DNA of 64,000 bases from Candidatus Thorarchaeota archaeon (GTDB lineage Archaea; Asgardarchaeota; Thorarchaeia; Thorarchaeales; Thorarchaeaceae), in NCBI GenBank assembly GCA_030612005.1, contig JAUWOU010000002.1:915-64914 (forward strand), given 5' to 3'. The translations under genes were made by a program, and so were the position numbers. The first letter of the stretch is position 1, and the number at the start of each line of letters is the position of its first letter. The notes beneath the pieces were generated by a model, which was not told where the DNA came from, ran no database searches, and was given only the letters and a program-made list of their open reading frames with translations. Shown here piece by piece: positions 13,188 through 33,202 of this stretch.

Positions 13188-15321
13188 AGGTTCTGACTTC
13201 GCCTCTTCTCCATTGGTTTCTTATTGGTCTGAAACACGGTTAGATATCATTCTTTGGAAGAATGAGAGTGAGTCATATCGCGGTTTCTTAAAGTACAGCA
13301 ATCCCACGGTTTCAGCGGAACTTGAGAATGGAACAACCGTCGTTCCTGATACGAAAGAAGACCTATGCGTAACTATTGAGTATGAAGTCATATTGAAAGA
13401 AACAGGGATAAGTGAACAAAGACCCCTGAAAAGACCAGTCAAGATACTCCTTAACCCAATTGTCACTCAACGTTACAGGTATTTTCCAAACCTTGATGGT
13501 AGAGGGGAATTTATCTTTCCGCCATCAACCAATAGATTCTACTCAAGACTTTTTGTTCTGGATCTTGAAAAATACTATGATGACGACGGTAGTATAGGTG
13601 CTCGTTGTTCCCTTCATCAGTGTCCAAATCAGAAGGATAGACTATGGCTCACAATATCAAACTCAGAAACCGGAGAGATCTACGAAGCCTTCCTCATCCA
13701 CCACTATGAAGGTAACATCTTTTTGATGCCCAATGATGCCCAGTTAGATTTTGCCCTTGCAAAGAGGTATGCAGATGGTGTTCGCAAATCGGACCTGTTC
13801 GATGTTGAAGGGCTCCTGAAAGGGCCACCGCCATCAATGGCCCAGCTAGCGATGTTGGTGCAGGATGTCAATGTACCGAACCTTATGATACATGATACCC
13901 TTGAGAGAACAATCTCACAACTAGTACCTCAGGTGTTTCCTGAAAACATAAGACAAAGCCTTTGCGTTTTCCTTGGCCTCCTTGCTCTTGATAAGATTGA
14001 ACAACGCAAGGACCCTGATGATCTTTCGGTCGAGTTCGCCCCTTGGAGAATGGTCAGTTCTCTCTACAATAGTCACTTACTTTACACTATTCTAAAAATC
14101 GAATCACCTTCATACGTTCGACTCATGCATCTAGCTGCACGAAGGGAGATGCAAGGAATCGGTAGAACTGTTAGGGAAGATATTGGTAAGAGTGAGTGGC
14201 TCATGTTCTGGCATCTACTTCACGATGGAGTGAAGAATTTCCGTGATGAGATACCTATTCTTCTGGATATCGTAGAAAGATCGAATCAGTTGGGTACGAT
14301 TACAGGCAAAATCATACCCTCCAAGTCTACGGGGCAACGTTCACGTAAGGCTTGGGTGACACGGTTAGTATGTAACTCTTCAGTTACTAGCCCCTCACTG
14401 ATTTGTACTCCCAATCTAAAGGCTCTTGGACTTGATCAGATTCTCTATCTGGGGTCCGCCTATTGCTGGCCTCACAGGCACATGTCATATATCACAAGTT
14501 TAGGAAGATGGCAGGTTAATAATCCACCACATCTACAACACATGATCCTCCCCTCGAAGGCTTCCGAACGAATCAGACGTCTGATTCCGTCAGTGTTGAA
14601 TGTTACTTGGAGTAGTAGGACTTTCAATCCTGACCTGTATACTAATCAGTGGAATGTGCGACCAGATGATATCTTGAGTTCCTTAGGTCGGACTAGACCA
14701 CTAACCACTCTGAGAAAGAAGTACTATACTCCTTCCCTCTGTGATGTTGATTATATTACTCCAACTGAAGCCTTGGTCATGGATATCATTACACGCTCAT
14801 TTCACATGATGTATTTCAAAGAACGACCATATTTGTTCGAGAAAATGTTCGGGATTGAGAAGCAACTTTTCATTCGTACTGCGCGTTCGTTGGCCAAGAG
14901 AGGGGTTCTGGAGCCACAATATATCCTAATCCCACTACTTCCTACACTGGCTACCATTGCCTGTGGAGAACCAAAGAATATCGTTTCTCTTGCTGATGCA
15001 TTTCTGTCGGGATCTCCTACATGCACAGCCTACATCTGTAACGAGGGAAACGATGCAGTCTTTCTCTCTCGAATACCACCCTCAGACCTAGGAGAACTTG
15101 CTAGGTCGCTCCCACAAGCAGGACAAGAACATGGGACTACCATTCGCTGTTTTAGACCTCACACCCTTAGAAGTTACAATCATTCGCTATACCAGAGATT
15201 ACTACGAGAGGATGGCACATGGGATGATGATGTGCGTGGATTCCTCTCTCAGGCACGAGGGAAGAGAGTTGAGATTGCAAATGTAATTGATAGCATGAAA
15301 ATTAAGAGTTGTATAACATGA
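13153..15321 (+). CDS. Large hypothetical protein (722 aa), translationally coupled to the ATPase
   Basis: Start overlaps the ATPase stop by 35 nt. No recognisable motifs by eye. Confidence 0.5.
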   Translation: MTILGRLRAVDEGSDFASSPLVSYWSETRLDIILWKNESESYRGFLKYSNPTVSAELENGTTVVPDTKEDLCVTIEYEVILKETGISEQRPLKRPVKILLNPIVTQRYRYFPNLDGRGEFIFPPSTNRFYSRLFVLDLEKYYDDDGSIGARCSLHQCPNQKDRLWLTISNSETGEIYEAFLIHHYEGNIFLMPNDAQLDFALAKRYADGVRKSDLFDVEGLLKGPPPSMAQLAMLVQDVNVPNLMIHDTLERTISQLVPQVFPENIRQSLCVFLGLLALDKIEQRKDPDDLSVEFAPWRMVSSLYNSHLLYTILKIESPSYVRLMHLAARREMQGIGRTVREDIGKSEWLMFWHLLHDGVKNFRDEIPILLDIVERSNQLGTITGKIIPSKSTGQRSRKAWVTRLVCNSSVTSPSLICTPNLKALGLDQILYLGSAYCWPHRHMSYITSLGRWQVNNPPHLQHMILPSKASERIRRLIPSVLNVTWSSRTFNPDLYTNQWNVRPDDILSSLGRTRPLTTLRKKYYTPSLCDVDYITPTEALVMDIITRSFHMMYFKERPYLFEKMFGIEKQLFIRTARSLAKRGVLEPQYILIPLLPTLATIACGEPKNIVSLADAFLSGSPTCTAYICNEGNDAVFLSRIPPSDLGELARSLPQAGQEHGTTIRCFRPHTLRSYNHSLYQRLLREDGTWDDDVRGFLSQARGKRVEIANVIDSMKIKSCIT

Positions 15322-16733
15322 GAGATATCGAAGAACTTTCAGATGATGAATCTCACATTGAAGATAGAGGAACAAAGGTCAAAGACTTCGAGAATCGTTC
15401 TCTGACTACTGAGGAACGTGATAAGATCATTCGCGAGTACAATGCTGAACATTCCATACATCGAATAATTCCTGATGCGGTCGATACACTAGACCAATCT
15501 GATAGGATTGTAACCGATTCAGAAAATCTTAATGATACTGATGAAGATACCGACTCTAGTTCTGAAAAAAAGAAGATAGATTCTGAAGAGGTTTGCAGAT
15601 TGTACATTGAGGATGGGCTGAGTCTAAAAGAAGTAGGAAAAATTTTCGGCTTCAAAACTGGTGCACCAATAAAACGAATATTAGAGGCTGAGGGGCTAGA
15701 ATTGCGATCAGCTGGAGCTCAAAAAACTGATATTAACTCTGAAGAGGTTTGCAGACTATATCTTGAGGAAGAACTGAGTCTGGATAAGATAGGAGAACAT
15801 TTTGGTCTTAAATCCCGTAGCCCTGTCAAACGAATCCTAGAAACTGCGGGAGTGGAAATACGCCCAGTCGGTTTTCAGAAGATAGATATTGACCATGATG
15901 AGGTCTATAGATTGTACTTTGAGGAGCGCAAGGATCTCAAAGAGATTGCTGACCACTTCGATTGCAAATCCACAGACCCCATCCATCGTATTTTTGATGA
16001 GCAGGGTTGGAAGACAAGGTATCAGGAAACCTATGAGAAGGATTTCGAACCTGAAGAGGTCTTTAGATTATACAATGAAGATGGATTGTCTTTGAGAAAG
16101 ATTGGGGAACATTTTGGGGTTTCAATTGGTCCTATCCGTAGAATCTTCGAAGAACATAACATGGAGTATGGTCAGGAGATTCAGATTGATCCAGAAGTTA
16201 TCCATAAGCTGTACTTTGATGAAGGATTGTCAAAAGAAGAAGTATGTGAGCGTCTTGGTGTTTCAAAGAGACCAATTAATCGTATAATTGAAGAGCAAGA
16301 TCTATTGAGGAACAGGAGTGGGTTGATTGACATTGATGATTTTTCTAGATTATACTATGTAGAAGAATTGACAATGACAGAAATATCCAAACATTTTGAA
16401 GTTTCACAAAATACTCTCAAGCGATTCCTCAAAAAGCACAAGTTGGAAGAAAGAACTACTAGAACTGTAAGAGAGATACGCGATGAGATGTTTGGTAAAG
16501 ATTGTGTATCCTGTCGAAGACCAAAAGAGGTTATTCATAAAAAGGATGGAGAGCCGCATGAGCGTTATAGAACTTGGACTAAGAAGGCATTACGAACAGT
16601 GAATCCAAACGAATGGGTGGCATTATGTGAACCCTGTCACAGGTTAACCCATTCTCTTATGAAATCATTTAGTTGTGAATGGGATGACATTGAAAAAATA
16701 CTAACAGAACTCGCAAAAGAATGGTTATCCTAG
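15309..16733 (+). CDS. Protein with six tandem HTH repeats (sigma-70 region-4-like) and a C-terminal HNH endonuclease motif
   Basis: Repeats of about 50 aa such as EEVCRLYIEDGLSLKEVGKIFGFKTGAPIKRILEAEGLELR. C-terminal CVSCRRPKEVIHKKDGEPHERYRTWTKKALRTVNPNEWVALCEPCHRLTH has HNH-like C-x2-C...H...N...C-x2-C-H spacing. Overlaps the upstream gene by 13 nt. Confidence 0.65.
   Translation: MYNMRDIEELSDDESHIEDRGTKVKDFENRSLTTEERDKIIREYNAEHSIHRIIPDAVDTLDQSDRIVTDSENLNDTDEDTDSSSEKKKIDSEEVCRLYIEDGLSLKEVGKIFGFKTGAPIKRILEAEGLELRSAGAQKTDINSEEVCRLYLEEELSLDKIGEHFGLKSRSPVKRILETAGVEIRPVGFQKIDIDHDEVYRLYFEERKDLKEIADHFDCKSTDPIHRIFDEQGWKTRYQETYEKDFEPEEVFRLYNEDGLSLRKIGEHFGVSIGPIRRIFEEHNMEYGQEIQIDPEVIHKLYFDEGLSKEEVCERLGVSKRPINRIIEEQDLLRNRSGLIDIDDFSRLYYVEELTMTEISKHFEVSQNTLKRFLKKHKLEERTTRTVREIRDEMFGKDCVSCRRPKEVIHKKDGEPHERYRTWTKKALRTVNPNEWVALCEPCHRLTHSLMKSFSCEWDDIEKILTELAKEWLS
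15585..16440 (+). repeat. In-frame tandem repeat array of about 150-156 bp units within the CDS, encoding the HTH repeats
   Basis: GAAGAGGTTTGCAGAYTRTA recurs at 15585 and 15741 at nucleotide level. The protein repeats are more diverged further 3'. Confidence 0.6.
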
Positions 16734-16766
16734 CTGTCGTGTCGAAACGGTTTTAAGCACGCTCCT

Positions 16767-17447
16767 GTGGTTCGAACAAGTTACTCGATGTATATAGGAG
16801 ATACCATCTTGGCCACAACAATTGATGATGAAGAAATCGACCTACTCATAGAGATGGATCGCTACCTCGCAGCCGGCTGCCACATCGGCACCCAAGTCAA
16901 AACGCAGGATATGGAGCCCTTTGTATACAGACAACGCCCAATCGGCCTATACGTTCTTGATGTTCGTAAGACTGATGAGAGGGTAAGAGTAGCTGGAAAG
17001 TTCTTGGCTCGATTTGATCCTTCCAAGATTGTAGTGGTATCTGGTCGTGTCTATGGTAAAAGACCAGTTGAAACCTTTTCCTACTATATTGGAGCCAGTG
17101 CTTTTACAGAGAGATTTGTTCCTGGTACCCTAACCAATCCTAATATTGCAGGACCACGAACGTACATTGAACCAGATGTAGTGGTACTTACTGACCCCCG
17201 TACGGACCAGCAGGCGCTTAATGAGGCTGCAAGAATCGGAGTACCAGTAGTTGCATTATGTGATACTGATAACGTAACAACAAATATCGATCTTGTTATT
17301 CCTACGAACAACCGTGGTCGGAAATCACTTGCACTAGTATACTATCTTCTAACTACTCAGGTCTTGAAAGAGAGGGGCGATATGCCTGAAGATGGTGAGC
17401 CCGTATACACGCCAGATGACTTTGAACCACAAGTACAGAGGTTCTGA
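16767..17447 (+). CDS. rps2: 30S ribosomal protein S2 (uS2)
   Basis: [40 protein letters not shown] and [32 protein letters not shown] match conserved uS2 blocks. Confidence 0.85.
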
Positions 17448-17451
17448 TAGT

Positions 17452-17865
17452 TCATCCTTCAATTAGAGTAACGACGCCATTATCGGCGTCAACCTCTATC
17501 TTTTGTCCATTCTGAATTTTTCCAATATCAATCTGATCTACTGCAGGTATCTCTGAAATAATACAACCCACAGCAACAACCGGGTCCATTATTTTATTGA
17601 CAATTGCAAGAGGAGCTTTTTCTGCTTTCTTCAACGCATACAAAACATATGACCCTACTGTAGAACCTTTTCCGCTGGGAAAAACAAGGACTTTTCCTGA
17701 TACAGACTTTCCCTCTAGATGATGTCCCTTTTCTACTATCTCACCAGTTTCAGGATCACAACCACCGTAGAATGATATGTCATCTCCAGTAACTAGAGCT
17801 TCACCAGTTACTTTTCCCTTGAAGATTTTCCTTCCTTGCATTATGATATTGCCTCCTTGATACAC
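17452..17865 (-). CDS. AcnX-type small subunit (DUF126 family), candidate phosphomevalonate dehydratase small subunit
   Basis: About 137 aa with GEALVTGDDISFYGGCDPETGEI. Overlaps the large-subunit gene by 25 nt. Sits in an operon with MVK and a UbiD-like gene. Confidence 0.65.
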   Translation of the reverse strand: MYQGGNIIMQGRKIFKGKVTGEALVTGDDISFYGGCDPETGEIVEKGHHLEGKSVSGKVLVFPSGKGSTVGSYVLYALKKAEKAPLAIVNKIMDPVVAVGCIISEIPAVDQIDIGKIQNGQKIEVDADNGVVTLIEG

Positions 17866-19037
17866 TGTTCGATTGTCCGTATCTCTGTCTTGAATTTGTT
17901 CTTTCCACGCGCATAGAAACAGGCTTTTGCTGAGTCAGTCATTAATCCGGTAAATTTACCTTTCAAAGGTGCCACCGCACAGCATGCGTCCGCGACCAGA
18001 AAGGCACCTGCATTCTCAATTATATCATAGTATCCCATCTTGATTGCTAGATCTTTGGTAGGCTTTGCTGTTGTAATCCAAACAGTTTTTCCATCTGCAA
18101 CTTTCTTTCCATCAAGCATTACCGCTATTTCTGCAATCTCCTTTATACTAGCATGTGGACAACCTACGCTGATGAAATCAATTTTAACCTCTTCATCATC
18201 GAGATCTACCCGAGCTGCGTGTAGGTCATCTTGAGTCACAACTTCAGTCTTATCAGGGATAGGGGTCTTGTTAGGTGTAATTCCCTCCATATGGAAGATT
18301 GCCACACCGCCATAAGTAGCAACTGATGCACAGAATGATTTGAGCTCTTCAGTGCTTGCTTTCTCCACTCCCGTGATGTATGGAATGGTCTTACCAGTTC
18401 TTGTACCAATGACATGTCCAAGAAGTCCAAAATCATCGGTATCCTTCAACTCTGCTTGGACATCATACTTGACCTGAGCTACCCTGTTTTCATCAAGGTG
18501 AAAGCCATACTCTGCAGTTTTTCCGGTAAGTGCGGTTGCCAACGCGCTAGGGCCACCTTCTCTGTTTGTTAATGCACCAATCACAGAGTTTGCAAAACAT
18601 ACAGCAGATGATTCAGCCCACGCAATGTGCTCTCCATAGTGTGGTAAATTACCAATGAGATATGGCGTACAAGTACAGGTTGTAATCACTCCCATTCTCT
18701 CAAAAGCATCAACCACACGCTCTTGGTTCACTGCAAAATCTTCACTTATACCATGTTTCTTCCATTCTAGCATATCCATTCCAGCAGGATTGAGGGTGGT
18801 TAGAACTCGAACCCGTCCATCTTCTGCTATCTCCGAGAGATACTCTAGACCTGCCTCTCCCAGATTGTGATACGAAACACCTGCTATCTGTACGCTAGCC
18901 ACTGGAATCAGTCTTTTTGCACCATAAATCTCACCTAAGGTAGTGATGATTTCCATGGCTTTCTGAGTTGCTTTTCCATGCTTACCTTCAAGCATTTCTT
19001 TCTCTTCTGGGGTTAGAATGAGTCCCATTTCACTCAC
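17841..19037 (-). CDS. AcnX-type large subunit (DUF521 family), candidate phosphomevalonate dehydratase large subunit
   Basis: N-terminus MLEGKHGKATQKAMEIITTLGEIYGAKRLIPVASVQIAG and cysteine-containing blocks, about 400 aa. Gene context is MVK/UbiD-like. Confidence 0.7.
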   Translation of the reverse strand: MSEMGLILTPEEKEMLEGKHGKATQKAMEIITTLGEIYGAKRLIPVASVQIAGVSYHNLGEAGLEYLSEIAEDGRVRVLTTLNPAGMDMLEWKKHGISEDFAVNQERVVDAFERMGVITTCTCTPYLIGNLPHYGEHIAWAESSAVCFANSVIGALTNREGGPSALATALTGKTAEYGFHLDENRVAQVKYDVQAELKDTDDFGLLGHVIGTRTGKTIPYITGVEKASTEELKSFCASVATYGGVAIFHMEGITPNKTPIPDKTEVVTQDDLHAARVDLDDEEVKIDFISVGCPHASIKEIAEIAVMLDGKKVADGKTVWITTAKPTKDLAIKMGYYDIIENAGAFLVADACCAVAPLKGKFTGLMTDSAKACFYARGKNKFKTEIRTIEQCIKEAIS

Positions 19038-20337
19038 CTAGATACTTTTTCAAATCGACTTCTGGGAACTTTGCTTTGTCAAAACTCTTACCCTTGGTAT
19101 CCAATGTTTTAGTGCAATCAAAACCACACTTGGTAGTCATTTTTGTACCAGGTTCCGCACTGGGATCTAACGAGCTACCTGGTTCTTGGTCCTTGATTAA
19201 GAGATCAACATCGGCCTGAAATCGAGTGGCCATTGCCCATTCTCTCTCTTCATCAGAGTAGATGTCGATATCGTCATCATATACCCAGATGTGTTTAGCA
19301 CTTTTATGACCTGAAAAAGCTCCTTCAAGGGCTTGGATTCCATCATCATCATTCTTTTTCTTGATTTTTATTGCTACATGAAGCCAACTGGCTCCACCAG
19401 GAGTAATGTTGACATCTAAGACTTCAATGCCTCTTTCCTTGATTTTCCTGAAAACAGTTGGTTCTCTTGGCATCCCCATCAGAATTTTGTGCTCATCCCT
19501 TCCTGGTAAGAGACCCTGCCATATTGCAGTCTTTCTGTGGGTAATCTTCTTCACTTCGAAGATTGGTTCTTGACGAATCACATCAACGGTTTCCGTTAAG
19601 TCAATGAATGGTCCTTCATCGTGCTTATCCCCCAGAATAATTCTTCCTTCAAGAACAAATTCAGAATCTGCTGGAATCATCAGATCAACAGTCTTAGCTC
19701 GTGTAACAGAAATTTTTCGAAGCGCATTTGCTATCTCTAATTCATTTATCCCAGTTTCTACCGATGTTGCCGCAGCAATCAATACTTCTGGAGTGTTTCC
19801 AATACAGAAAGCAACATCAACTTCTCCATTTCGTTCCAAGAATTTATGGAAATCTCTCCCTTTGACAACTCTTACTACCATTTTGTTTTTGCTTATCTGC
19901 ATGGCTCTGTGAAAATCAAGATTTTGACCAAATTCAGGATCTGCTGCTACTACAACTCCGGATGAGATATAGGGTCCTCCATCGACCTTGTTATGTATTA
20001 GAATTGGCAACTTGTCAAGATCTACTTGGTTTTCAATCACTTCTTGACATGGGACTTTGTCAGTCTGATCTGGTTCACTTCGTTTTTCTATTGCTCTTGT
20101 AAGAGTTGGAATTATCTCTTCTGTGGTTATCCCAAAATAGTCCGCAATCTGCCTCTTATTGCAGAACAAGTTACCTGTAACTCGAAATTCACTTTCCTTA
20201 ACATTCTCAAAAAATACAGGCTGTGGTTCGAGGCTCTTCAATACACCAGCAATCTCAAGACTCTTTGAGATTCTTTCAGTGATAGTAGTAATCTTTCCAT
20301 TCTGTTGTAAATCTTTGATATATTCCTCAAGTATCAT
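19030..20337 (-). CDS. UbiD-family decarboxylase, candidate trans-anhydromevalonate-5-phosphate decarboxylase
   Basis: N-terminal PVFFENVKESEFRVTGNLF matches the UbiD family block (LFENVKGSDFPVVGNLF). Overlaps the AcnX gene by 8 nt and lies immediately downstream of mvk. Confidence 0.7.
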   Translation of the reverse strand: MILEEYIKDLQQNGKITTITERISKSLEIAGVLKSLEPQPVFFENVKESEFRVTGNLFCNKRQIADYFGITTEEIIPTLTRAIEKRSEPDQTDKVPCQEVIENQVDLDKLPILIHNKVDGGPYISSGVVVAADPEFGQNLDFHRAMQISKNKMVVRVVKGRDFHKFLERNGEVDVAFCIGNTPEVLIAAATSVETGINELEIANALRKISVTRAKTVDLMIPADSEFVLEGRIILGDKHDEGPFIDLTETVDVIRQEPIFEVKKITHRKTAIWQGLLPGRDEHKILMGMPREPTVFRKIKERGIEVLDVNITPGGASWLHVAIKIKKKNDDDGIQALEGAFSGHKSAKHIWVYDDDIDIYSDEEREWAMATRFQADVDLLIKDQEPGSSLDPSAEPGTKMTTKCGFDCTKTLDTKGKSFDKAKFPEVDLKKYLGE

Positions 20338-20346
20338 GAAACCACC

Positions 20347-21300: not shown

Positions 21301-21429
21301 TCACCATCTTGGCTTGTGAAAGCGCTGTAGATAATCGGTACTTTTGAACTCTTCCGTCAACATTAATGCAATTCTTTGTGAACACAAGATTATTGTTGGA
21401 TTCGGATAAGAAATGAACCTCTGGAGTAC

Positions 21430-22401
21430 TTGTCTGTGAAAATACTTGATTTGTTCTGTGGTGCTGGTGGATTCTTTCATGGATTCTCCGCTCTTTCAGA
21501 TGACACTCATCTTGCTATTGATATAGATAAACCCGCAATTGAAACTTACAGACTCAACCATCCTAATGCCACAATATTACAGACGGATATCAATAGTCTC
21601 CACTCTTTACAAATAGAAGAAGAACTGGGTGGCACTCCTGACATTATCATTGCTTCTCCACCTTGTGAAGAATTCAGTAAAGCAAATCCTGAAAGTCGAA
21701 GGTCTGCAGCAGATAGGATTTACGGCGAAGGAACTGCAAAATTATTACTAGATACAATTCGGATAATAGGGGACTTTGCTCCAAAAGCATTCGTCATCGA
21801 GAATGTTGCAGCACTTCTTCTAAGTGGAGGAAAGGAAATCATCAAGCGGGAGTTTGAACGTGTTGGTTTTGACAGTGTCGAGTTTAATCTGATTAGGGCA
21901 CATCAACATGGAAATCCGTCAAAACGATTACGAGTCTTCATCAGTAATATCCGAATGAAACCACCACGAAAATACCCACCTACAGTTATGGAAACAATAG
22001 GAGATCTTCCATCACTTGATATCAACGCGATTTTCAATCCCGGAGAGATGTTTCCTAATCATGAAATCTATCACTTGGCTGATGATAAGATGAAGTCCGT
22101 GCGAAAGACCCGTTGGGGTCAAGGGGCCAAACATTACCGTGTATCAAAGAAACGGAGTCTTCCTAACTGGGTTCGCTTATTCCCCGATCGACTTGCCACT
22201 TCAATTAACGGTCTCTCACGTTATGTACATCCGTATGAACATAGGCTGTTATCGGTAAGAGAACATGCAAGACTTATGAGCTATCCTGATTCGTTTGTTT
22301 TCGTTGGATCAAAAGACAGCCAATACAATCAAGTGGGTGAGAGTGTTCCTCCACTAGTATCCAATCTAATTGCACAGGAGGTTCGTGCACATATTGAATG
22401 A
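21430..22401 (+). CDS. DNA (cytosine-5)-methyltransferase
   Basis: Motif I ILDLFCGAGGF, motif IV SPPCEEFS (PC), motif VI FVIENVAALL (ENV). Confidence 0.8.
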   Translation: MSVKILDLFCGAGGFFHGFSALSDDTHLAIDIDKPAIETYRLNHPNATILQTDINSLHSLQIEEELGGTPDIIIASPPCEEFSKANPESRRSAADRIYGEGTAKLLLDTIRIIGDFAPKAFVIENVAALLLSGGKEIIKREFERVGFDSVEFNLIRAHQHGNPSKRLRVFISNIRMKPPRKYPPTVMETIGDLPSLDINAIFNPGEMFPNHEIYHLADDKMKSVRKTRWGQGAKHYRVSKKRSLPNWVRLFPDRLATSINGLSRYVHPYEHRLLSVREHARLMSYPDSFVFVGSKDSQYNQVGESVPPLVSNLIAQEVRAHIE

Positions 22402-22870: not shown

Positions 22871-22947
22871 TGGTGTGCCGGACGAGATTTGAACTCGCGA
22901 TCCCTTGGATCCGAACCAAGAATCATACCAATCTAGACCACCGACCC
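22871..22947 (-). tRNA. tRNA-Pro (anticodon CGG) with encoded CCA. One acceptor-stem mismatch (G2.A71).
   Basis: Reverse-complement sequence: GGGTCGG TG GTCT AGATTGGTA TGAT T CTTGG TTCGGAT CCAAG GGATC GCGAG TTCAAAT CTCGT CCGGCAC A CCA. U8, A14, G18G19, U33, A37 and the T-loop TTCAAAT are present. Confidence 0.75.
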
Positions 22948-22957
22948 AATCATTAAG

Positions 22958-23848: not shown

Positions 23849-23860
23849 GCTAGAGATTGC

Positions 23861-25431: not shown

Positions 25432-26047
25432 AGGCCCACTGAGGTTTCTCTAAGCCTTCATCATCAAGTATTTCATCAATCAGGTCCTTTAATTCCCTCA
25501 TACCCTGTTTCTTCACAGCAGCCGATAATATGATTGTGGGCTCTCTATCACTTACAGCTTCTCTAAGCTGAAATTTGAGAAAGTCTAATTCATCATCGAT
25601 ATGTCGTTTCTTTACCTTGTCCATCTTGTTTGCTAGCACTATTACACGCGGGGAAATTTCACATAGAAAGGAATAGAACTCTACATCAACTGGTACCTCT
25701 CCACGAGATGACCATCGGTCGAAAAGTATTCTAAATAATGAAATATCAACAATGAACACTGATAACAGGATTCTGCTACTCCAACTTTCCAAACTTTCGA
25801 TAATATGGTTCTTTGTTTCTTCAATAGTTGTCTTACTCTGTCCTGACATAAAACCAAACCCTGGAATATCTACTATAGTTACAGGGTCTAAATCGATCAT
25901 CTGTTCCCATCGAGTACTTCCTGGTCTTTTACCCACTCTTACTTTCTTTCCTGTGAGCACACGAATAGTACTACTCTTCCCTACATTGCTTCTTCCTGCA
26001 AAGACAATCAAGGGCTTGTTATTACCAGTAGGGTCTTGTTCTTTCAT
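25424..26047 (-). CDS. engB: GTP-binding protein EngB (YihA/YsxC family)
   Basis: G1 motif AGRSNVGKSS, DIPGFG (G3) and NKMDK (G4). Confidence 0.8.
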   Translation of the reverse strand: MKEQDPTGNNKPLIVFAGRSNVGKSSTIRVLTGKKVRVGKRPGSTRWEQMIDLDPVTIVDIPGFGFMSGQSKTTIEETKNHIIESLESWSSRILLSVFIVDISLFRILFDRWSSRGEVPVDVEFYSFLCEISPRVIVLANKMDKVKKRHIDDELDFLKFQLREAVSDREPTIILSAAVKKQGMRELKDLIDEILDDEGLEKPQWAFT

Positions 26048-28865
26048 ATTGAAGCTCTCCCTTTGCTATTGCTCGTAGGATTTCAAGTCTTTCCTTTAAA
26101 CTTGGGCTTAGAATACGCGATGCTGTTGTTGCACCAATACCACGTCCAGCTAGTACCAAAAGGGCTGTTTTCCCATATCTTGAAACTAGTTCTGCTGTTA
26201 GTGACGCTGATTTGTATTTCTTTTCTTCCTCTTTCGTCAACAACACTTTTCCCCTAAGTCGTTTGTCAAGAAGTTTTGTGAAGTCTTTGTCTGAGAGTTG
26301 TACGACTGCAATCATTTTCGATTCACAGATTGGACAAGTGACGACTTCGTCTAATGTTTTAATAGTTCTCACAGAGTTCCAATGGTTCTCAGCCATACAT
26401 ATCAGTCTGAATTTCTTTGAAAGAAGTCGTTCTTCCATCATTCGTAACACTTCATCTTCTTCTGTAATCTCACCCATCACTTCAAAACGGGTCTTCTCTT
26501 CAATTATTAGGCGCGCTAAGGGTGATGGTGGTCCTATTGTCTTAGTTTCGTGAATCTCAAGACTTCCATTAGAATACCTATCAAAGACTTTCATAGCTCG
26601 CTTCTCATCCATTTTTTCATCAAGGACCTCTCGCATTGCTTCTTCAAATACAGGAGTTCCCTCAAAGGATTTGATGAGGTATCTAACGGGAATCTGCTTT
26701 GACTTTGCATCCTTTCGTATAATATCCATTCTTCGAGCAACATGAACAAATCTAGATGCGAAGTTCTGTGTCTGCTTGACAGCTAATTTCAGAATATGTG
26801 ACGCTTGTTCACCAGAATAATCTCTAAGGACATCAAGTAAATGATTTGACTCCAAGTTATCACTGGCTGTAAAGAGAATACGATAGGGATCCCTTTCAAC
26901 AGCCACTTCGATACCAAGACGTGTTGTCAAAAGAGAAGCTATCACAATCCCTAATGTTTCATTTGCTCTAGTTCCCAATGGAGAATGAAGAACAATCCCT
27001 GAACCAAACGTTTCCAAGATATACAAATCTGGTGATGGAAGTTCTCCCAAGACATCCCTACTCCGTGTAAGAGTGTCAACAAGATGATTTTTAGCTTCTC
27101 CAGTTATTCCATAGTTCGCCAGCCAAGAATCAATTCTTCTGGTATCTTTTTTGAGAATTGTGTTCCACATTATTGCAACATCTGAAGCCACCTCATATGG
27201 CACTGGAATCATCTCTCCTATCCAGCGCGGTGCATCGGTATTCGTACCTGTTGCGGGTGCACACATCACTTCCCCACTCTCATCATCGACATTGATCACA
27301 TTCCATGGTCTTCCTCTTATTACAAATACTGTGCCTGGTGCGACATTGGCGGCTACATAATCCTCATCGAGGACACCAATTGACGTACGTGTTGTAATAT
27401 CTACTGCACTGACCTGTCGTGTGTCAGGAATCGTGCTTAGACGTTCATAGTAGAACATGCGTGATTTTGAACCTCTAGACACCTGTGAACCATGTAGTTC
27501 TAGAAGATATCTTCCTTCCATAAATTGTAGAAGTGTATCAAGTTCCGCAGCTGTTACCTCTGAAAATGGATATGCTGAAGTCACCAATTCCAACAATGAT
27601 TCTTTCTCTATTGTATCCCAATCGAGAAGCACTCCAGTTATCTGATGACAAAGAACATCCCAAGCTTTCTTTGGTATTCTAGCATTCTCCACCTTGTTCA
27701 GCCTTGCACGTCTTATGATAATTCCAGATTCTGAAATATCATCCAAGTTTATAGTCGAAATCACAATTCCTTTCGATATACGCCCAACACTATGACCAGA
27801 CCTCCCAACTCTTTGGACTAATCTAGAAACCTCTCTGGGAGATGAATATTGAATTACAAGGTCCGCCTGTCCAATATCTATACCTAATTCCAAACTCGAT
27901 GTTGCAATAATTGCTTTTGAAACTCCAGACTTTAAATTATCTTCAGCAGTAAGACGTGCACTTTTGGATAGCGAACCATGATGTACATCAAACGTGTATG
28001 GTGGACTCAAAGCCCTCATTTTTGCGCCAAGGACTTCTGCAAATGAACGTGTATTAGTAAAGACAAGAGTAGATTGATGTTTTTCAATCAAATCCACAAT
28101 CGTTTCAAGCCTTGCCACAGAATGAGGTGGGTATGATAATTTCTTGACTAATTTCTTATGCTGATCATTTGGCGAAGGCATCTCTACTCTAAGATCTACT
28201 TTACGATTGTCATAGCCTGCCCATACAGTCTTGATATTCCTCTTTCCGCCTAGAAGTCGTGCTACTTCTTTTGGATTTCCTACAGTTGCAGATAGTCCTA
28301 CTCGCATTATCCCTGAACCTATTAAATGTTCAAGACGTTCAAGTCCCAGACTAAGTTGAGTCCCTCTCTTACTACCTGCTAGATTATGTACTTCATCTAC
28401 AACTACCGCAAAGACAGTCCTGAGGTGATATCTTAGTCGTTTTCCTGGTAGGATTGCTTGAAGAGTTTCAGGAGTAGTAATCAATAAGTTTGGAGGGTAA
28501 ATAGCCTGTTTTCTTCTAGCATATTGAGTTGTATCACCGTGACGGACATCAGCAGTTAGACCAAGGTGTTCACAGAGTTCTACGATTCTTTTGAACACAT
28601 CACGATTTAATGCCTTCAAGGGAGTGATATAGAGGATATAGAATCCAAACAATTCCTTCTGCTTACTCATCTGTTGTAATTTATTCAATAATGGTAGAAG
28701 TGCAGCTTCAGTTTTACCACTCCCTGTTGGGGCGAGAAGGAGTGAATTATGCGTTCCCTCAAGCAGTAATGGGATTGCTTTCTCCTGAATAGGTGTAGGT
28801 TTTACAATACCTTTTGACTTGAGAAATTGGACTATCTCTTTACTCAGGGGAGTCCGTGCACTCAT
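26022..28865 (-). CDS. lhr: Lhr-like ATP-dependent DEAD/DEAH-box helicase. The ORF extends to 28898, but the start is probably Met12 at 28865, overlapping the upstream stop as TGATG.
   Basis: PTPIQEKAIP...APTGSGKTEAALLP (Walker A), VVVDEVHNL (DEVH), helicase C-terminal motifs, and a C-terminal C4 zinc ribbon (CPICESKM...). About 950 aa. Confidence 0.8.
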   Translation of the reverse strand: MSARTPLSKEIVQFLKSKGIVKPTPIQEKAIPLLLEGTHNSLLLAPTGSGKTEAALLPLLNKLQQMSKQKELFGFYILYITPLKALNRDVFKRIVELCEHLGLTADVRHGDTTQYARRKQAIYPPNLLITTPETLQAILPGKRLRYHLRTVFAVVVDEVHNLAGSKRGTQLSLGLERLEHLIGSGIMRVGLSATVGNPKEVARLLGGKRNIKTVWAGYDNRKVDLRVEMPSPNDQHKKLVKKLSYPPHSVARLETIVDLIEKHQSTLVFTNTRSFAEVLGAKMRALSPPYTFDVHHGSLSKSARLTAEDNLKSGVSKAIIATSSLELGIDIGQADLVIQYSSPREVSRLVQRVGRSGHSVGRISKGIVISTINLDDISESGIIIRRARLNKVENARIPKKAWDVLCHQITGVLLDWDTIEKESLLELVTSAYPFSEVTAAELDTLLQFMEGRYLLELHGSQVSRGSKSRMFYYERLSTIPDTRQVSAVDITTRTSIGVLDEDYVAANVAPGTVFVIRGRPWNVINVDDESGEVMCAPATGTNTDAPRWIGEMIPVPYEVASDVAIMWNTILKKDTRRIDSWLANYGITGEAKNHLVDTLTRSRDVLGELPSPDLYILETFGSGIVLHSPLGTRANETLGIVIASLLTTRLGIEVAVERDPYRILFTASDNLESNHLLDVLRDYSGEQASHILKLAVKQTQNFASRFVHVARRMDIIRKDAKSKQIPVRYLIKSFEGTPVFEEAMREVLDEKMDEKRAMKVFDRYSNGSLEIHETKTIGPPSPLARLIIEEKTRFEVMGEITEEDEVLRMMEERLLSKKFRLICMAENHWNSVRTIKTLDEVVTCPICESKMIAVVQLSDKDFTKLLDKRLRGKVLLTKEEEKKYKSASLTAELVSRYGKTALLVLAGRGIGATTASRILSPSLKERLEILRAIAKGELQYERTRPYW

Positions 28866-29092
28866 CAGTTGCTCTTCCTTCTCTCTAGGTGACGACATTC
28901 ATTGATTAAGATACGGATGTCGGTCCTGAGAGTCACCTCTGCGTCTTCAATCTTCTTCTCTAAAATTTCAATTATAGCATCAAATGATAGAACTTCAGAT
29001 TCCAAATCATCAACTATCGTCTTTACAGTTTCTAAATTAGAAATGTGGGATGCAATATTATCAAAAGCAGCTCGTATATCTGAACTTGTCAT
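28865..29092 (-). CDS. Small coiled-coil protein coupled to the lhr-like gene. The reading frame stays open upstream to an ATG at 29230, which would add a TM helix (MQTLETFTSILFIMLAAMGIIAL...).
   Basis: Charged heptad-like sequence. Its stop overlaps the lhr start. I found no in-frame stop between 29092 and 29230. Confidence 0.35.
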   Translation of the reverse strand: MTSSDIRAAFDNIASHISNLETVKTIVDDLESEVLSFDAIIEILEKKIEDAEVTLRTDIRILINECRHLERRKSN

Positions 29093-29295
29093 TGGGAACG
29101 ACTTCCCGCCAGACTAATCCTCTTCCTCTTCACCATATACCATGTATCCCATTGTGAGTAGGAGAGCAATAATACCCATTGCAGCTAGCATGATGAATAG
29201 GATTGAAGTGAAAGTTTCGAGAGTCTGCATTGGAATCTTGTGTCTGCGGATTTAGTCCGCTTATAATCATTGCTGAATATTAACAGCTGTACTGG

Positions 29296-29547
29296 TTATG
29301 CTTCAACACTTCGTTGTTCATAGAACTTGTCTATGAATGATCCATAGATATCCACAGGCTCAGTCAAAGGATTTACATCATCAATTGTCATTTCTATAGT
29401 GCATGAACCACACTTTACAGTCGCCATTCCATTGTCCCTATAAATTTGGATCTTGATGGCAGTATTTCCACAATCCGGACATGGATATACGTCTGGAATG
29501 CGTTTCTGTGGTCGCCGACGTACTTTTTGTCTTCGTCTTCTTCCCAT
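29296..29547 (-). CDS. Elf1-like transcription elongation factor (zinc-ribbon)
   Basis: Basic N-terminus MGRRRRQKVRRRPQKR, C-x2-C...C-x2-C zinc ribbon, and LTEPVDIYGSFIDKFYE. These match the Elf1 family pattern (LTEPVDIYSDWIDACE). Confidence 0.7.
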   Translation of the reverse strand: MGRRRRQKVRRRPQKRIPDVYPCPDCGNTAIKIQIYRDNGMATVKCGSCTIEMTIDDVNPLTEPVDIYGSFIDKFYEQRSVEA

Positions 29548-29646
29548 GATGCTTCACCTATACCTATTTCACACCTAACAGAACATAAGCCCCGAAAGAA
29601 ATGAGCAAGTCCTGCGGCTCAGGTGTTAATTTAAGCATTTGGTTAA

Positions 29647-29940
29647 GTGACAGAATCACTCCATTACGAAGCTTTCTTATTGTCGGATGTGTCGCCTCGA
29701 TTAGCGATGTCCGACCTCTCAAAAAACTCTCAGTGTGTACTCAAGGTTCTTGAAACTGCAGACTCCCTAACAACAACCGAGATCCTTGAGATTGCCCGTA
29801 AAAAGAAGTATGCCGACATATGCACAGACTGTGCTGGTGGCGATGCTTTCGTAGCTGCTGCCAACCAACTCGTTGAGATGGGTCTTGTCACTAAGAAGTT
29901 TGGCAAGGGAGGCTATCGGTGGCATTTGGTAAAAGGTTGA
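29647..29940 (+). CDS. Small hypothetical protein, possible winged-helix
   Basis: 97 aa. VLKVLETADSLTTTEILEIARKK resembles a wHTH helix. Weak evidence. Confidence 0.3.
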   Translation: MTESLHYEAFLLSDVSPRLAMSDLSKNSQCVLKVLETADSLTTTEILEIARKKKYADICTDCAGGDAFVAAANQLVEMGLVTKKFGKGGYRWHLVKG

Positions 29941-31187
29941 TTTACATGGTTGACTGGACTAAAATCAGGAAAGACTTCCCAGCCCTTGAACGTAGAATTA
30001 ACGGTCATCCAGTAGTGTATCTGGATAGTGCATGCATGGCACTCAAGCCTAGACAGGTCATCGATGCTATGAATGAATACTATGAGATGTATCCCGCTTG
30101 TGCTGGAAGGAGTATCCATAGATTTGGTGAGGAGGCTTCTAACGCATATTCTGCAGCTCGAGGTAAATTTGCCAAGTTCTTGAATGCTGCCCAAGAAGAA
30201 GAATGCATCTGGACTAGAAATGCTACAGAATCTCTCAATATTGTTGCAAGCTCAGTTAAACTGCCAAAAGGTTCCAAAATCATCACAACGTCTCTTGAGC
30301 ATCATAGTGGTTCTCTTCCATTCGTTGAGAGAGCAAAAAGAGACGGTCTAGAGATTGAGATAGTCAAAGCTCAGATGGATGGAACTTTTGATATCGAAGA
30401 CTGGAAGAGTGCAATTGACAACAATACAAGTCTAGTATCTGTTGTTCATTCTTCTAATGTCACAGGCACAATATCTTCAATGAAAGATATCGTTGAGATT
30501 GCACATGATCGAGGAGCTATAGTGATGTGTGATGACGCTCAGTATGCCCCTCATCACCCACTTGATGTTCAAGAAATGGATGTAGATTTTTCATGTATTT
30601 CAGTCCATAAAATGTGTGGACCCACTGGAATGGGCGTACTCTATGGAAAGATGGAACATCTCGAATCAATGAACATGGCTCTATATGGTGGGGACACGGT
30701 TAGTGATGTTAAATTTGAGAATGGACAGATACTTCCTGAATATCTTCCGCCTCCTGAGAAATTTGAGGCGGGTCTGCAGAATTATGCTGGTGCAATAGGT
30801 GCAGGAGCTGCAGCTGAATATCTTCAAGCAATTGGAATGCATGAGATTGAGAAACATGAACGTTCTCTCCTCAAAGTTGCGCTGAAAAGACTGCTTGATA
30901 TGGAACATGTACACATCCTTGGAACAGATAACATCAACATCAAAACTGGTCTAGTAACTTTTAGTGTTGATACTGTCCCTTCAGCACATGATGTGGCAAC
31001 ATTCCTCAATGATGAATTCAATGTTATGGTTCGCAGCGGTGCTCATTGCGTACATCCATTTCATCATCAGTTGGGTATTCCAGTAGAAAGAGGAACTGCC
31101 CGTGCAAGTTTCTATCTGTACAACAATATGGAAGATGTCAAAACATTTCTTGATGGTCTAGAAACACTTCTTGAAGCAAGTAGTTAG
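29919..31187 (+). CDS. Cysteine desulfurase (class V aminotransferase, SufS/CsdA-like)
   Basis: HHSGSLPF, VVHSSNVTG, the PLP-lysine region SVHKMCGPTGMGVLYG, and C-terminal RSGAHCVHPF (catalytic Cys). Confidence 0.85.
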   Translation: MAFGKRLIYMVDWTKIRKDFPALERRINGHPVVYLDSACMALKPRQVIDAMNEYYEMYPACAGRSIHRFGEEASNAYSAARGKFAKFLNAAQEEECIWTRNATESLNIVASSVKLPKGSKIITTSLEHHSGSLPFVERAKRDGLEIEIVKAQMDGTFDIEDWKSAIDNNTSLVSVVHSSNVTGTISSMKDIVEIAHDRGAIVMCDDAQYAPHHPLDVQEMDVDFSCISVHKMCGPTGMGVLYGKMEHLESMNMALYGGDTVSDVKFENGQILPEYLPPPEKFEAGLQNYAGAIGAGAAAEYLQAIGMHEIEKHERSLLKVALKRLLDMEHVHILGTDNINIKTGLVTFSVDTVPSAHDVATFLNDEFNVMVRSGAHCVHPFHHQLGIPVERGTARASFYLYNNMEDVKTFLDGLETLLEASS

Positions 31188-31192
31188 GTTTC

Positions 31193-33202
31193 TTATTTAA
31201 ACCTACTAGGAAGATGCCGTTCAAAAAGTCCCCACTTGATGGCTTTATTCACACTTCTCATCTTCCTTTTATGATCCGGAGGTGCAATCTTGACCCAAAT
31301 AGCCGCATCTCTGTTCCTGCTAGTAGTACATGACCAAAGTAGTGATATTTTTCCAGTTTCAGGATACAAAACCACTCTATCCCAGCGTCTTGTAATACTG
31401 ATAGCGAAATGCTCGACAATCTTCTTTTCACTTTCAAGGAGTCTACTTTTATTCTCCTTTATCATCTTGTGAAATCGTTGAGCTTCAGTTGCAATCTCTG
31501 AATCAGAATCCATCATCAATTTATCTAATTCTCCTTTTGTTATCACGATTTGTTTAGTTGGTTCTTCTTTGATAGAATAAGGATTCTTGAAATCTGTCGT
31601 TTTTCTTTTACCATGTTCAATGATAAATTGTTGTTCAGAATTCCCAATCCGCGATTCCAAACCGTATTTTTCCATTTTCCCACTATACAAGGTAACGGCA
31701 CGACTCCATTTAAACCTCCAACCACCTCCTTTGAACGAGAAGCTCCCATCTTCTGCAATCAACTGGCTTAGGTACTCTTGTTTGACTCTATTAGTTCCAT
31801 CTTTGATTACCTTGGGGAGGTCTGAATTGAGGATGCTTTTGTCACCAATAGGCATTCCCCATACCGCTAACATTCGACCGAATACAGCAGGTAATCCAAT
31901 AACATGGCCATCTTTTCTTTTAGATTCCCAATATTGAATTTCACCAAGCTGGCTAATTATTTCCTTGAATCTTCTAAGACGGACTTGGTCTTTCTCGTAA
32001 TAATGAGCCGACATTTTTGGTCTAAGATGTCCATCACTCATCATCGCACCAATTAATTGAGCTCTGATTATCTCTATATCTAATGGAAACTCTGGGTTCT
32101 CAATATTGCCTCTCCCACGTTTTGCACCAAAGCCCGAAATGTGTTTGATAGATTGAACATCTTGAATGTCCTTTCCGACCACATCTAGAATAAATCCAAG
32201 TGTTTCTCCTGTTAGATAATTACTTGATTTTCTGAGTTCATTTCTATCAGATCCTTGAGTGACGTTTCTAGTTTCTTCCGCAAATTGATTCAGTAATCTT
32301 CCAAAATCTCGACGACTAATACCTCCAAGATGAAGAAGAGCATTTTCAACAATTCTATTCTTTGCTTCAGAAGATTCGAAATGAAAATGATCGACAGCGT
32401 GTATATCTGTCCAACTATTAATACCTGGCACGCATCTATGGACATAAAGTGTATCATTTACTATTCCAATTCTCAGGCTATTAGTATCTAATTTGTTTTT
32501 GACCTCTCCCTGATTTCGCGTAATGTAATCAGATACACCCCTATACCATTGTGTTCCAAGAGTGGAGTATGGTCTCAAATTCGTATAATAGAATCGGATA
32601 TTTTGTGGCACTTGTTCGTCTAAACCAATTATCATTGATGCTACTTGTTGAAAATCCAATAGTTCGAATCTGAATTTCTTGAATGAATGATATACAAGAG
32701 AACAATCTATACAATGTTCTTGTGCCTCACATGGCACTTCCCGTTCACAATCAATCCTATCAGCCTCAAGTTTCTCAAGTATCCTTAGACCAAAAGGCCT
32801 TACTTCTCTGTAAGACCAATCATTAAACGATGAGTCAGGAATCCCATAATGTACCGCTAACTCCTTTCTTTGTACTCCCTCTGGAATTTTCCCCGTCTTC
32901 TTATCATCCTTCATTCTGAAATATCCAGCAATCTCTCGCAATTCCTTCTTTGCATCCATCCTTTCCATGAAAGAAGGATTTCTTTGTAAAACCTCTTGGA
33001 ATTCATCATAGGTTTCAATTCTCGAATTGAGGTTTCTCTCTCGTGCATTAATTTTTCCTATATTCTCTCCTTCCAGTGAAGGCTTAATCTTAGATAATTT
33101 GTCGTGATATTCTCTGATTATTTCATCTCTTTCTTCAGGAGTTAATCGTCTACCCTTTTTCTCTGAATCTTCGGATAAATCGTATTCTCGAGTTTCTCTC
33201 AA
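31193..33202 (-). CDS. Free-standing LAGLIDADG-type homing-endonuclease-like protein with two LAGLIDADG-like motifs and a long N-terminal extension
   Basis: AQLIGAMMSDGHL and YLSQLIAEDGSF resemble paired LAGLIDADG motifs. No intein splice-junction context. The N-terminal 55 aa are paralogous to the N-terminus of the 15309..16733 protein. Confidence 0.55.
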   Translation of the reverse strand: MRETREYDLSEDSEKKGRRLTPEERDEIIREYHDKLSKIKPSLEGENIGKINARERNLNSRIETYDEFQEVLQRNPSFMERMDAKKELREIAGYFRMKDDKKTGKIPEGVQRKELAVHYGIPDSSFNDWSYREVRPFGLRILEKLEADRIDCEREVPCEAQEHCIDCSLVYHSFKKFRFELLDFQQVASMIIGLDEQVPQNIRFYYTNLRPYSTLGTQWYRGVSDYITRNQGEVKNKLDTNSLRIGIVNDTLYVHRCVPGINSWTDIHAVDHFHFESSEAKNRIVENALLHLGGISRRDFGRLLNQFAEETRNVTQGSDRNELRKSSNYLTGETLGFILDVVGKDIQDVQSIKHISGFGAKRGRGNIENPEFPLDIEIIRAQLIGAMMSDGHLRPKMSAHYYEKDQVRLRRFKEIISQLGEIQYWESKRKDGHVIGLPAVFGRMLAVWGMPIGDKSILNSDLPKVIKDGTNRVKQEYLSQLIAEDGSFSFKGGGWRFKWSRAVTLYSGKMEKYGLESRIGNSEQQFIIEHGKRKTTDFKNPYSIKEEPTKQIVITKGELDKLMMDSDSEIATEAQRFHKMIKENKSRLLESEKKIVEHFAISITRRWDRVVLYPETGKISLLWSCTTSRNRDAAIWVKIAPPDHKRKMRSVNKAIKWGLFERHLPSRFK

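Follow-up and report, generated by a model that had tools for sequence, protein, structure and literature searches.

A short acidic N-terminal leader shared by unrelated Thorarchaeota proteins and genetically tied to a membrane HerA/FtsK-like ATPase operon

Two leader-bearing proteins in one chromosomal window

We have analysed a 64,000-nucleotide stretch of DNA from a Candidatus Thorarchaeota archaeon (assembly GCA_030612005.1, contig JAUWOU010000002.1, positions 915 to 64,914), referred to here as the window, in which two proteins of different architecture, A and B, begin with the same kind of short peptide, designated the leader. The stretch is an archaeal chromosome segment carrying genes for PolD DP2, RPA, Lhr, an XPD-like protein and a topoisomerase, and every named homologue of protein A originates from Candidatus Thorarchaeota. 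Protein A (15318..16733, plus strand) consists of the leader, an acidic linker, six tandem helix-turn-helix (HTH) repeats and a C-terminal Cys4/His zinc motif of putative HNH type, and is encoded by the last gene of an operon containing a HerA-like ATPase. Protein B (31193..33202, minus strand) comprises the leader, a helical, HTH-like N-terminal half and a predicted double-motif LAGLIDADG fold, and is encoded by a stand-alone gene between the cysteine desulfurase and RPA genes. An earlier reading of the letters of this DNA, the original prediction, had given the coordinates of both open reading frames (ORFs) correctly, leaving unstated that 31193..33202 lies on the minus strand.

The leader is 37-46 amino acids (aa) in length, shorter than the ∼55 aa originally proposed, and is composed of three parts: an acidic block beginning at residue 1 (block 1, consensus MRE..E[FY][DS][ED].[ED]), a variable, acidic linker of 0-30 residues, which reads RLFSLDEI[LM]SESE in one subgroup, and a helix (block 2, consensus [RK].[LIM][TS].EERDE[IL][IL]RE[YV][HN]). 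The helix is amphipathic with an N-cap (L-T/S-x-E-E-R-D-E-I/L-I/L-R-E-Y/V) and is followed by a disordered tether and then the folded body. Asp and Glu account for 35% of leader residues and the mean net charge is -10, the leader of protein B having a net charge of -2. In protein A, the leader corresponds to aa 1-46 (15318..15455, plus strand) and is of the A-type subtype, with block 1 at 15318..15353 (MRDIEELSDDES) and the block 2 helix at 15396..15443 (RSLTTEERDKIIREYN). In protein B, the leader is of a short subtype without linker and corresponds to aa 1-37 (33092..33202, minus strand), with block 1 at 33161..33202 (M/L-RETREYDLSEDSE) and the block 2 helix at 33104..33151 (RRLTPEERDEIIREYH).

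The ORF of protein A, a protein 100% identical to the deposited NCBI protein P0007, extends over 15309..16733 (plus strand). Translation probably begins with the ATG at 15318, where this start and the stop of the preceding ORF (13153..15321) overlap in ATGA; a TTG at 15309 is the alternative. The residues 'LYN' preceding the Met are retained in relatives (MYNLRDIEE in P0043), and 15309..15320 and its equivalents in L003, L013, L018 and L025 also encode the end of the upstream gene (..SCIT, then stop) and an SD-like GAG. Thus, since 'LYN' is conserved while the same region serves these other purposes, the true start remains ambiguous between the two positions. For protein B the start is the TTG at 33202, as homologues have an ATG at the aligned position (MREFREID...).

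Homology and distribution of the leader

BLASTP comparison of proteins A and B detects one significant stretch, in which 12 of 18 residues are identical (ENRSLTTEERDKIIREYN / KGRRLTPEERDEIIREYH, E = 0.002), a match which taken alone is weak. No other significant match was returned, which confirms that the two proteins are unrelated downstream, and the leader motif does not occur elsewhere in a six-frame translation of the window. The likeness extends to the extreme N-terminus (MRDIEELSDDES vs MRETREYDLSEDSE), with a 9-residue indel between the blocks. A profile constructed from A-type leaders alone detects protein B (24.6 bits, E = 7e-7) and, reciprocally, a profile from B-type leaders alone detects protein A (19.8 bits, E = 2e-5), both having been run against 717 sequences including every six-frame segment of the window, of which no other was matched. 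Most protein A homologues retain the leader, and all full-length protein B homologues retain an N-terminus of the form MRE[FT]RE[YI]D.SED...RLTPEERDEIIREY, including P0006, whose body is 27% identical. This reciprocal detection, combined with retention of the leader across both families, bears out the predicted homology of the two N-termini, and the 12 identities claimed for the 16-residue block were recovered.

Conservation is evident in the peptide and not in the DNA. Within the 16-residue block, 9 of the 12 identical residues are encoded by different codons and nucleotide identity is 56%, indicating that selection acts on the peptide; the same figures exclude RNA- or DNA-level conservation and recent gene conversion between A and B. 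Combined, the sequence comparisons indicate that the shared N-terminus of A and B is a homologous, selected peptide module. Two further origins of block 2 were considered and rejected. Against a degenerate helix 1 of the protein A HTH repeat stands an hhalign probability of 0.09 (E = 0.57) for the alignments of leaders and repeats. As a psq/CENP-B-type HTH, it had a resemblance by eye and a Pfam CENP-B_N match of E = 0.05 that were not borne out, Pfam matches to residues 16-39 of protein B all being below cut-off (CENP-B_N, E = 0.05; Rad50_zn_hook, E = 0.062; Arg_decarbox_C, E = 0.18).

An exhaustive HMMER profile search with the leader, covering 1.84 billion protein representatives, returned 34 proteins at E <= 1e-3, with the best stretch beginning in the first 15 residues in 26 of them. 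Approximately 28 further leader clusters were identified in this manner, with the leader at residue 1 in nearly all; known members score 28-68 bits with the profile. The named sources are exclusively Candidatus Thorarchaeota, no model in Pfam, NCBIfam or PADLOC matches the leader, and no description of it was found in the literature searched. The leader thus represents a new family. Block 2 is repeated in tandem in the true members P0048, P0054, P0061 and P0071, and block-2-like repeats also occur internally in five clearly unrelated proteins (P0050, P0055, P0056, P0062 and P0067). The helix motif by itself is therefore not diagnostic, membership being defined by the presence of both blocks and by their location at residue 1.

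These data also bear on whether a common helix-cap motif (LTxEER..I) could have arisen independently in two acidic N-termini. The pairwise match is short, 18 aa at E = 0.002, and the internal repeats of the five unrelated proteins demonstrate that such a motif recurs. However, both blocks, like their location at residue 1, are conserved in the families of A and B alike, and detection by profile works in either direction. Chimeric proteins carrying the leader of A on the body of B (P0041, P0043, P0049, P0051 and P0063; see below) effectively refute coincidence, the probability of which is negligible.

The HerA-like operon

In an apparent operon, the gene for protein A is preceded on the plus strand by four genes. 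The first (8904..9584) encodes a small protein with N- and C-terminal hydrophobic segments, either membrane-located or secreted, and the second (9551..10414) a polytopic membrane protein; orthologues of both, 58-68% identical in the case of the second, occupy the same positions in L005, L006 and L029, and neither protein matched a family model. The third (10386..13187) encodes a membrane-anchored ATPase with Walker motifs, and the fourth (13153..15321) a 722-aa soluble protein belonging to no known family, which is present in some versions of the operon only and whose stop overlaps the start of protein A. The ATPase has three hydrophobic segments in residues 1-91, a Walker A motif (GNPGSGKT) at residue 479 and LLVLEE at residue 702, and matches the PADLOC models HerA (E = 2.8e-8) and mad8 (E = 1.4e-10). 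It reaches 39 bits with the NCBIfam model CedD, for which the cut-off is 600, and has no Pfam match at 1e-3; its L005 orthologue, 44% identical, carries Pfam DUF87. Judged by these features, the product of 10386..13187 belongs to the HerA/FtsK superfamily.

Related arrangements recur at other loci, which were scanned with the A-type leader alignment, the scans therefore covering A-type leaders only. L029 contains a whole operon, with the first membrane protein, the second, an ATPase 68% identical to that in the window and a 54-aa stub of the 722-aa gene preceding a leader gene with a B-type body. In L005/L006 the two membrane proteins and a 907-aa DUF87 ATPase precede an A-like HTH protein, the genes overlapping by 14 nt. 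Leader genes also follow an ATPase 82% identical to that of the window in L015 (P0034, with a LAGLIDADG_3 body), a HerA-like ATPase in L012 (P0047, 1230 aa), an 89% identical homologue of the 722-aa protein in L013 (P0045, 1090 aa) and a HerA-like C-terminus in L002 (B-type body). In L004 the C-terminus of a HerA-like ATPase and an 88-aa leader remnant are followed by an orthologue of A and then by S2 and AcnX, as in the window. Thus, there is a genetic link between the leader and the 3' end of an operon for a HerA/FtsK-like membrane ATPase, leader genes being recurrently the last gene of such an operon with a start overlapping the preceding gene, an order which supports the HerA-like ATPase as the candidate partner named in the original prediction. 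No immunity-like gene was found downstream of leader genes, the positions being occupied by housekeeping or unrelated genes (ribosomal S2, dsDNA_bind/S19e on the opposite strand, Robl_LC7, GCV_T).

The A-type leader scan detected no relative on viral contigs, and A and B reside in conserved chromosomal neighbourhoods in several Thorarchaeota genomes. A viral or mobile-element origin was rejected for these reasons, and the description of the two proteins as selfish or defence nucleases is not established.

Exchange of bodies behind the leader

At least seven unrelated bodies are found behind the leader. The first consists of the six tandem HTH repeats and Cys4/His zinc motif of the protein A family. 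The second is the B-type double LAGLIDADG body, present in B, P0041, P0043, P0049, P0051, P0063, L002, L003, L022, L024-L027, L029 and L031, and the third a different LAGLIDADG type corresponding to Pfam LAGLIDADG_3 (E = 1.8e-7 for P0037; also P0034, P0061, P0069, L019 and L028). The fourth to seventh, and those beyond, are large proteins without a recognisable domain: P0045 (1090 aa), P0046 (817 aa), P0047 (1230 aa), P0053 (∼1200 aa), P0057 (1231 aa) and a 1411-aa ORF in L023. All five of these numbered proteins, as well as the 722-aa operon protein, lack a match in Pfam; P0045, P0047, P0057 and the 722-aa protein lack one in PADLOC and NCBIfam, and P0045, P0046, P0047 and P0057 lack one among PDB sequences.

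Bodies have demonstrably been shuffled, as chimeras carry an A-type leader before a B-type body. P0041 and P0043 possess leaders 66-72% identical to that of protein A and bodies 25-27% identical to B, and the same combination occurs in P0049, P0051 and P0063. In P0006, P0063 and L002, one to three A-type HTH repeats are situated between the leader and the B-type body. P0047 (L012) and P0057 exhibit no similarity in their bodies, yet both are encoded last in a co-directional string of overlapping genes and share the neighbours dsDNA_bind, ribosomal S19e and CRS1_YhbY; apparently, one body has taken the place of another at a single site of the chromosome.

Where such an exchange has taken place is resolved at the leader of protein A. 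The window and the DNA of L013 are 90.5% identical over 14549..15456, after which similarity ends; as 15455 is the last base of codon 46, where the leader ends, the breakpoint coincides exactly with the leader/body boundary. Occurrence of one leader on at least seven bodies, together with a recombination breakpoint at the leader end, substantiates the domain shuffling that had been suspected. Dispersed A-type leader genes (L001/L019, L003/L031, L016/L017 and L025-L027) are still preceded by the final 12-54 codons of the 722-aa gene, in which internal stop codons are frequent; the operon of L029 has a stub as well. Nearly all of the dispersed loci retain the sequence around GAGTTGTATAAC-ATG-AGAGA, and GAGTTGTATAACATGAGAGA, located just 5' of the start, is conserved across loci. 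Copies that have moved elsewhere thus still carry the leader together with its ribosome-binding site and a remnant of the gene that preceded it. Remnants were also noted elsewhere. In L004 an 88-aa ORF (1714..1980) with a degenerate leader ending in ..GCIT and a stop, and in L029 an isolated extra block 2 (4679..4727), represent debris of earlier cassettes situated before the current leader genes, as does a 74-aa fragment of a P0047-type body in L030 (1773..1994), directly before P0053.

A breakpoint exactly at the leader end, conservation of GAGTTGTATAACATGAGAGA upstream of the start and starts which overlap the upstream stop would all be expected if the leader had no function as a protein, its 5' end acting as a homology handle for cassette recombination and supplying signals for translation initiation and coupling. 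This is contradicted by conservation at the amino acid level with diverged codons (9 of 12 residues; 56% nucleotide identity). In addition, stand-alone B orthologues, which are inherited vertically, have kept the leader even where body identity has dropped to 27%, and protein B has its own 330-bp upstream region, without a stub of the 722-aa gene and without the upstream sequence conserved at A-type leader genes. A purely nucleic acid-level role is consequently very unlikely.

Leader subtype was observed to follow gene order. A-type leaders are preceded by the 722-aa gene or by what is left of it, and LFSLDEI-type leaders lie directly behind the HerA-like ATPase, before three different bodies (P0014, P0047 and P0034). 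Leader subtype thus tracks the upstream gene, not the body. This has consequences for a role of the leader within its own polypeptide, in which the acidic tail and helix would serve as a tethered mimic of DNA or as an autoinhibitory peptide, covering the surfaces with which the body binds or cleaves DNA until a signal displaces them. The acidity of the leaders (35% Asp/Glu, mean net charge -10), the disordered tether joining leader to body, the preponderance of DNA-binding HTH arrays or LAGLIDADG folds among identifiable bodies and retention of the leader by protein B outside the operon are all in accord with such a regulator. However, the same leader is present on at least four large bodies without a detectable DNA-binding domain, its subtype tracks the upstream operon gene, and the leader of protein B is only weakly acidic (net charge -2); a DNA mimic, moreover, requires neither a strict position at residue 1 nor a conserved MRE start. 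Intramolecular regulation is therefore considered unlikely.

Domains of protein A

The HTH array of protein A is recognised by Pfam Sigma70_r4/HTH models and, below the cut-off, by the NCBIfam Cbp1-like HTH model; matches of protein A in PADLOC and NCBIfam are confined to this array and do not include the leader. The C-terminus (16440..16733) contains the pattern CxxC..H.KDG..H...W..LCxxCHxxxH, invariant in 12 homologues, the invariant residues being C13, C16, H24, K26, D27, G28, H31, W50, L53, C54, C57, H58 and H62, and the position of the HNH Asn varying between N and D. Neither the full-length protein nor its C-terminal 92 aa matches an HNH family in Pfam, and a profile of the 12 C-termini searched against the PDB returned just GATA zinc fingers (E = 0.35) and no HNH. 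The invariant pattern is, by motif alone, compatible with a zinc-stabilised HNH. Of the HTH array and HNH nuclease originally assigned to protein A, the former is thus corroborated by Pfam and the latter remains a motif-level assignment.

Fold and chromosomal position of protein B

Protein B has no match in Pfam, including LAGLIDADG_1/2/3, and no model in PADLOC or NCBIfam. Its structure was predicted with AlphaFold2 from a 12-sequence alignment (pLDDT 84, pTM 0.76), a model from seven sequences (pLDDT 57) being discarded. The predicted structure opens with a disordered tail (residues 1-17, pLDDT 30-39) and continues with one helix over residues 22-42 (pLDDT 63-77) and a second disordered segment over residues 39-59, the body being folded from approximately residue 60 onwards. 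This disordered tail, lone helix and second disordered segment indicate that the leader is a tethered peptide located outside the globular body. Foldseek matched the C-terminal half to the TliVMA intein endonuclease (E = 1.7e-5) and also to PI-SceI, I-Tsp061I and I-DmoI (target-normalised TM 0.6-0.68; I-DmoI 0.66) and WhiA (PDB 3hyi, 8dy7). The query-normalised TM is 0.21-0.23, and the LAGLIDADG core of protein B alone therefore superposes, so that the intein origin to which these best matches might point was not adopted. Both motifs, LIGAMMSDGHL (S389, D390 and H392 invariant) and LIAEDGSFS (consensus PEDGSF), have kept their acidic residues. The predicted fold thus confirms the body of protein B as a double LAGLIDADG fold, the LAGLIDADG-like assignment of the original prediction being upheld by the model and not by Pfam. 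The gene is free-standing and its orthologues share one chromosomal site (see below), so that neither residence in an intron or intein nor mobility is indicated.

A helical module lies behind the leader of protein B at residues ∼60-145 (32770..33020, minus strand; ..QRNPSFMER.D...ELAVHYGIPDSSFNDW..RP). It is HTH-like in appearance with a weak MarR match (E = 0.23), and the same module is present in the LAGLIDADG_3 protein P0037 (27% identity, E = 7e-4) and twice in P0041.

Orthologues of protein B occupy the same site between the RPA and cysteine desulfurase genes, near PolD DP2, in L007, L008, L010 and L011. Decay is apparent at each of these loci: the gene is split in L007 (8001..10008) and L008 (6203..8210) into ORFs of 408 and 268 aa, and in L010/L011 (8001..9119) the C-terminal 372 aa of the orthologue alone are left, with Roc/SLFN_AlbA_2 and other genes inserted beside them. 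In the window, protein B lies ∼16 kb from the HerA-like operon and outside any operon of this type. One dispersed leader family, that of protein B, has become a fixed stand-alone chromosomal gene.

This dispersal raises a further alternative, in which the leader is an adaptor to some other shared partner, for example a replisome or chromatin factor, or an oligomerisation helix, its link to the operon being historical. Conservation of protein B beside RPA and PolD DP2 in several genomes, the dispersed location of many leader genes and the tandem block 2 of P0048, P0054 and P0061, an arrangement frequent in short binding or coiled-coil units, are consistent with this proposal. In contrast, the HerA-like operon is the only common neighbour seen across loci and leader subtype co-varies with the type of operon, rendering such a partner quite unlikely.

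Proposed role of the leader

The leader remains with the operon while the body changes and its subtype tracks the upstream gene, from which it follows that the leader is most likely an adaptor to the machinery encoded there, the part which stays and co-varies with an operon being normally the part that contacts the operon products. A tethered helix with an acidic tail is, in addition, typical docking-signal anatomy. The leader is the constant 5' part of interchangeable genes at the last position of the operon, and recombination just behind it exchanges the body. In the mechanism we propose, the tethered helix and acidic tail would be recognised as a signal by the ATPase hexamer or by the 722-aa protein, to which the effector encoded at the time would thereby be docked, and protein B, ∼16 kb distant, may be served in trans. 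We infer that docking of swappable effectors onto conserved machinery, either the ATPase or the 722-aa protein, is an evenly balanced proposition.

What the machine would accomplish is a separate matter, DNA transfer, defence and effector delivery all being possible. One specific version is that a Thorarchaeota membrane machine, comprising two membrane proteins, an anchored HerA/FtsK-like ATPase and sometimes the 722-aa partner, reads a 45-aa acidic N-terminal signal and loads or translocates a changing set of effectors, namely sequence-specific nucleases and large proteins, as an archaeal counterpart of bacterial polymorphic-effector delivery or conjugative coupling. We regard this version as possible but doubtful.

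Several observations weigh against docking to the operon products. Many leader genes occur outside any such operon (B and its orthologues, P0006, L022-L024 and L031), which implies that the leader also works in trans or has another role. Linkage to the operon could result from mere descent from an operon gene, and bodies which are mostly DNA-binding or nuclease-like also fit an intramolecular role of the acidic tail. The lack of an immunity-like gene behind leader genes weakens the analogy with secreted toxins, and the matches of the ATPase to the HerA and CedD models are weak.

Comparison with known systems

In polymorphic effector and toxin loci, a constant N-terminal trafficking domain is combined with swappable C-terminal parts (Zhang et al. 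2012, PMC3482391). The leader system resembles these loci in its constant N-terminal part followed by unrelated downstream parts that include nuclease folds, in recombination at the boundary, the orphan copies here keeping a piece of the constant region, and in linkage to a membrane ATPase of the FtsK/HerA superfamily. LXG proteins of type VII secretion are read by the FtsK-like ATPase EssC, and Rhs/CDI loci contain orphan cassettes. It differs in belonging to an Asgard archaeon, in having a constant part of just ∼45 aa that is acidic and for the most part disordered, and in the exchange of whole bodies of 400-1400 aa and not of a C-terminal toxin tip. Furthermore, no immunity-like gene is situated downstream and no secretion apparatus was identified, a membrane ATPase and two membrane proteins being all that is visible, and some leader proteins, such as B, are vertically inherited and core-like.

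Substrate signals known from type IV systems are C-terminal or internal, unlike the acidic N-terminus represented by the leader. Ced of Crenarchaeota is a DNA-import system with CedD/CedB coupling ATPases (PMC11823120). As in the case of VirD4 and CedD/CedB, a membrane FtsK/HerA-superfamily ATPase is encoded here together with small membrane proteins and a DNA-processing protein, and coupling proteins of the VirD4 and Ced kind recognise substrates through short signals, a role that the leader may share. However, the operon does not group with Ced or type IV systems when compared for CedD, CedB, VirD4, pilin and VirB6-like components: the CedD match remains at 39 bits against a cut-off of 600, and no VirB4-like second ATPase or pilin was identified.

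HerA is paired with NurA in archaea, and with partners in the bacterial defence systems Sir2-HerA and DUF4297-HerA. The window operon is similar in that a HerA-like motor gene adjoins a nuclease-like partner and effectors are exchanged between related operons. It is dissimilar in that the ATPase is anchored in the membrane through its N-terminus and is accompanied by two membrane proteins, the effectors have a leader peptide in common and no known defence system was matched. With respect to protein B, the closest parallels are WhiA and other domesticated LAGLIDADG-HTH fusions, as the body combines a double LAGLIDADG fold with helical HTH-like modules at a fixed chromosomal site; unlike WhiA, B keeps the acidic residues of both LAGLIDADG motifs, its HTH-like part is N-terminal and the leader is present. 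The leader module is new, short, acidic and archaeal, with a logic that resembles polymorphic effector loci and FtsK-like coupling signals.

As all of its carriers share one short peptide, the leader can be used as bait for large Asgard proteins without known function. The breakpoint, resolved to the base pair, indicates that in Asgard archaea entire protein bodies are swapped at the end of an ATPase operon, behind an adaptor that stays constant; to our knowledge, body exchange behind a constant part has so far been known mainly from bacterial conflict systems. If docking holds true, an uncharacterised HerA/FtsK-like membrane motor of archaea would have the leader proteins as its substrates or effectors, and these would provide a hint as to how homing-endonuclease-like proteins entered cellular systems.

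Other genes in the window

A third LAGLIDADG-type gene (49726..50679, minus strand) encodes a protein of 317 aa, the N-terminal half of which is different and without a leader. Its C-terminal half shows ∼40% identity with the C-terminal ends of P0061 and P0069, two LAGLIDADG_3 proteins that bear the leader, the Pfam LAGLIDADG_3 match reaching just E = 0.008. The stretch also contains AcnX, UbiD and GHMP mevalonate genes, the gene for ribosomal protein S2 and a single tRNA-Pro. This sole tRNA gene of the window (tRNA-Pro CGG, 22871..22947, minus strand) is adjoined by a gene for a C-5 cytosine DNA methyltransferase (21430..22401, plus strand), in place of which the syntenic stretch of L004 has a 194-aa gene without Pfam matches. 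The methylase/tRNA-Pro region may therefore be a small variable island.

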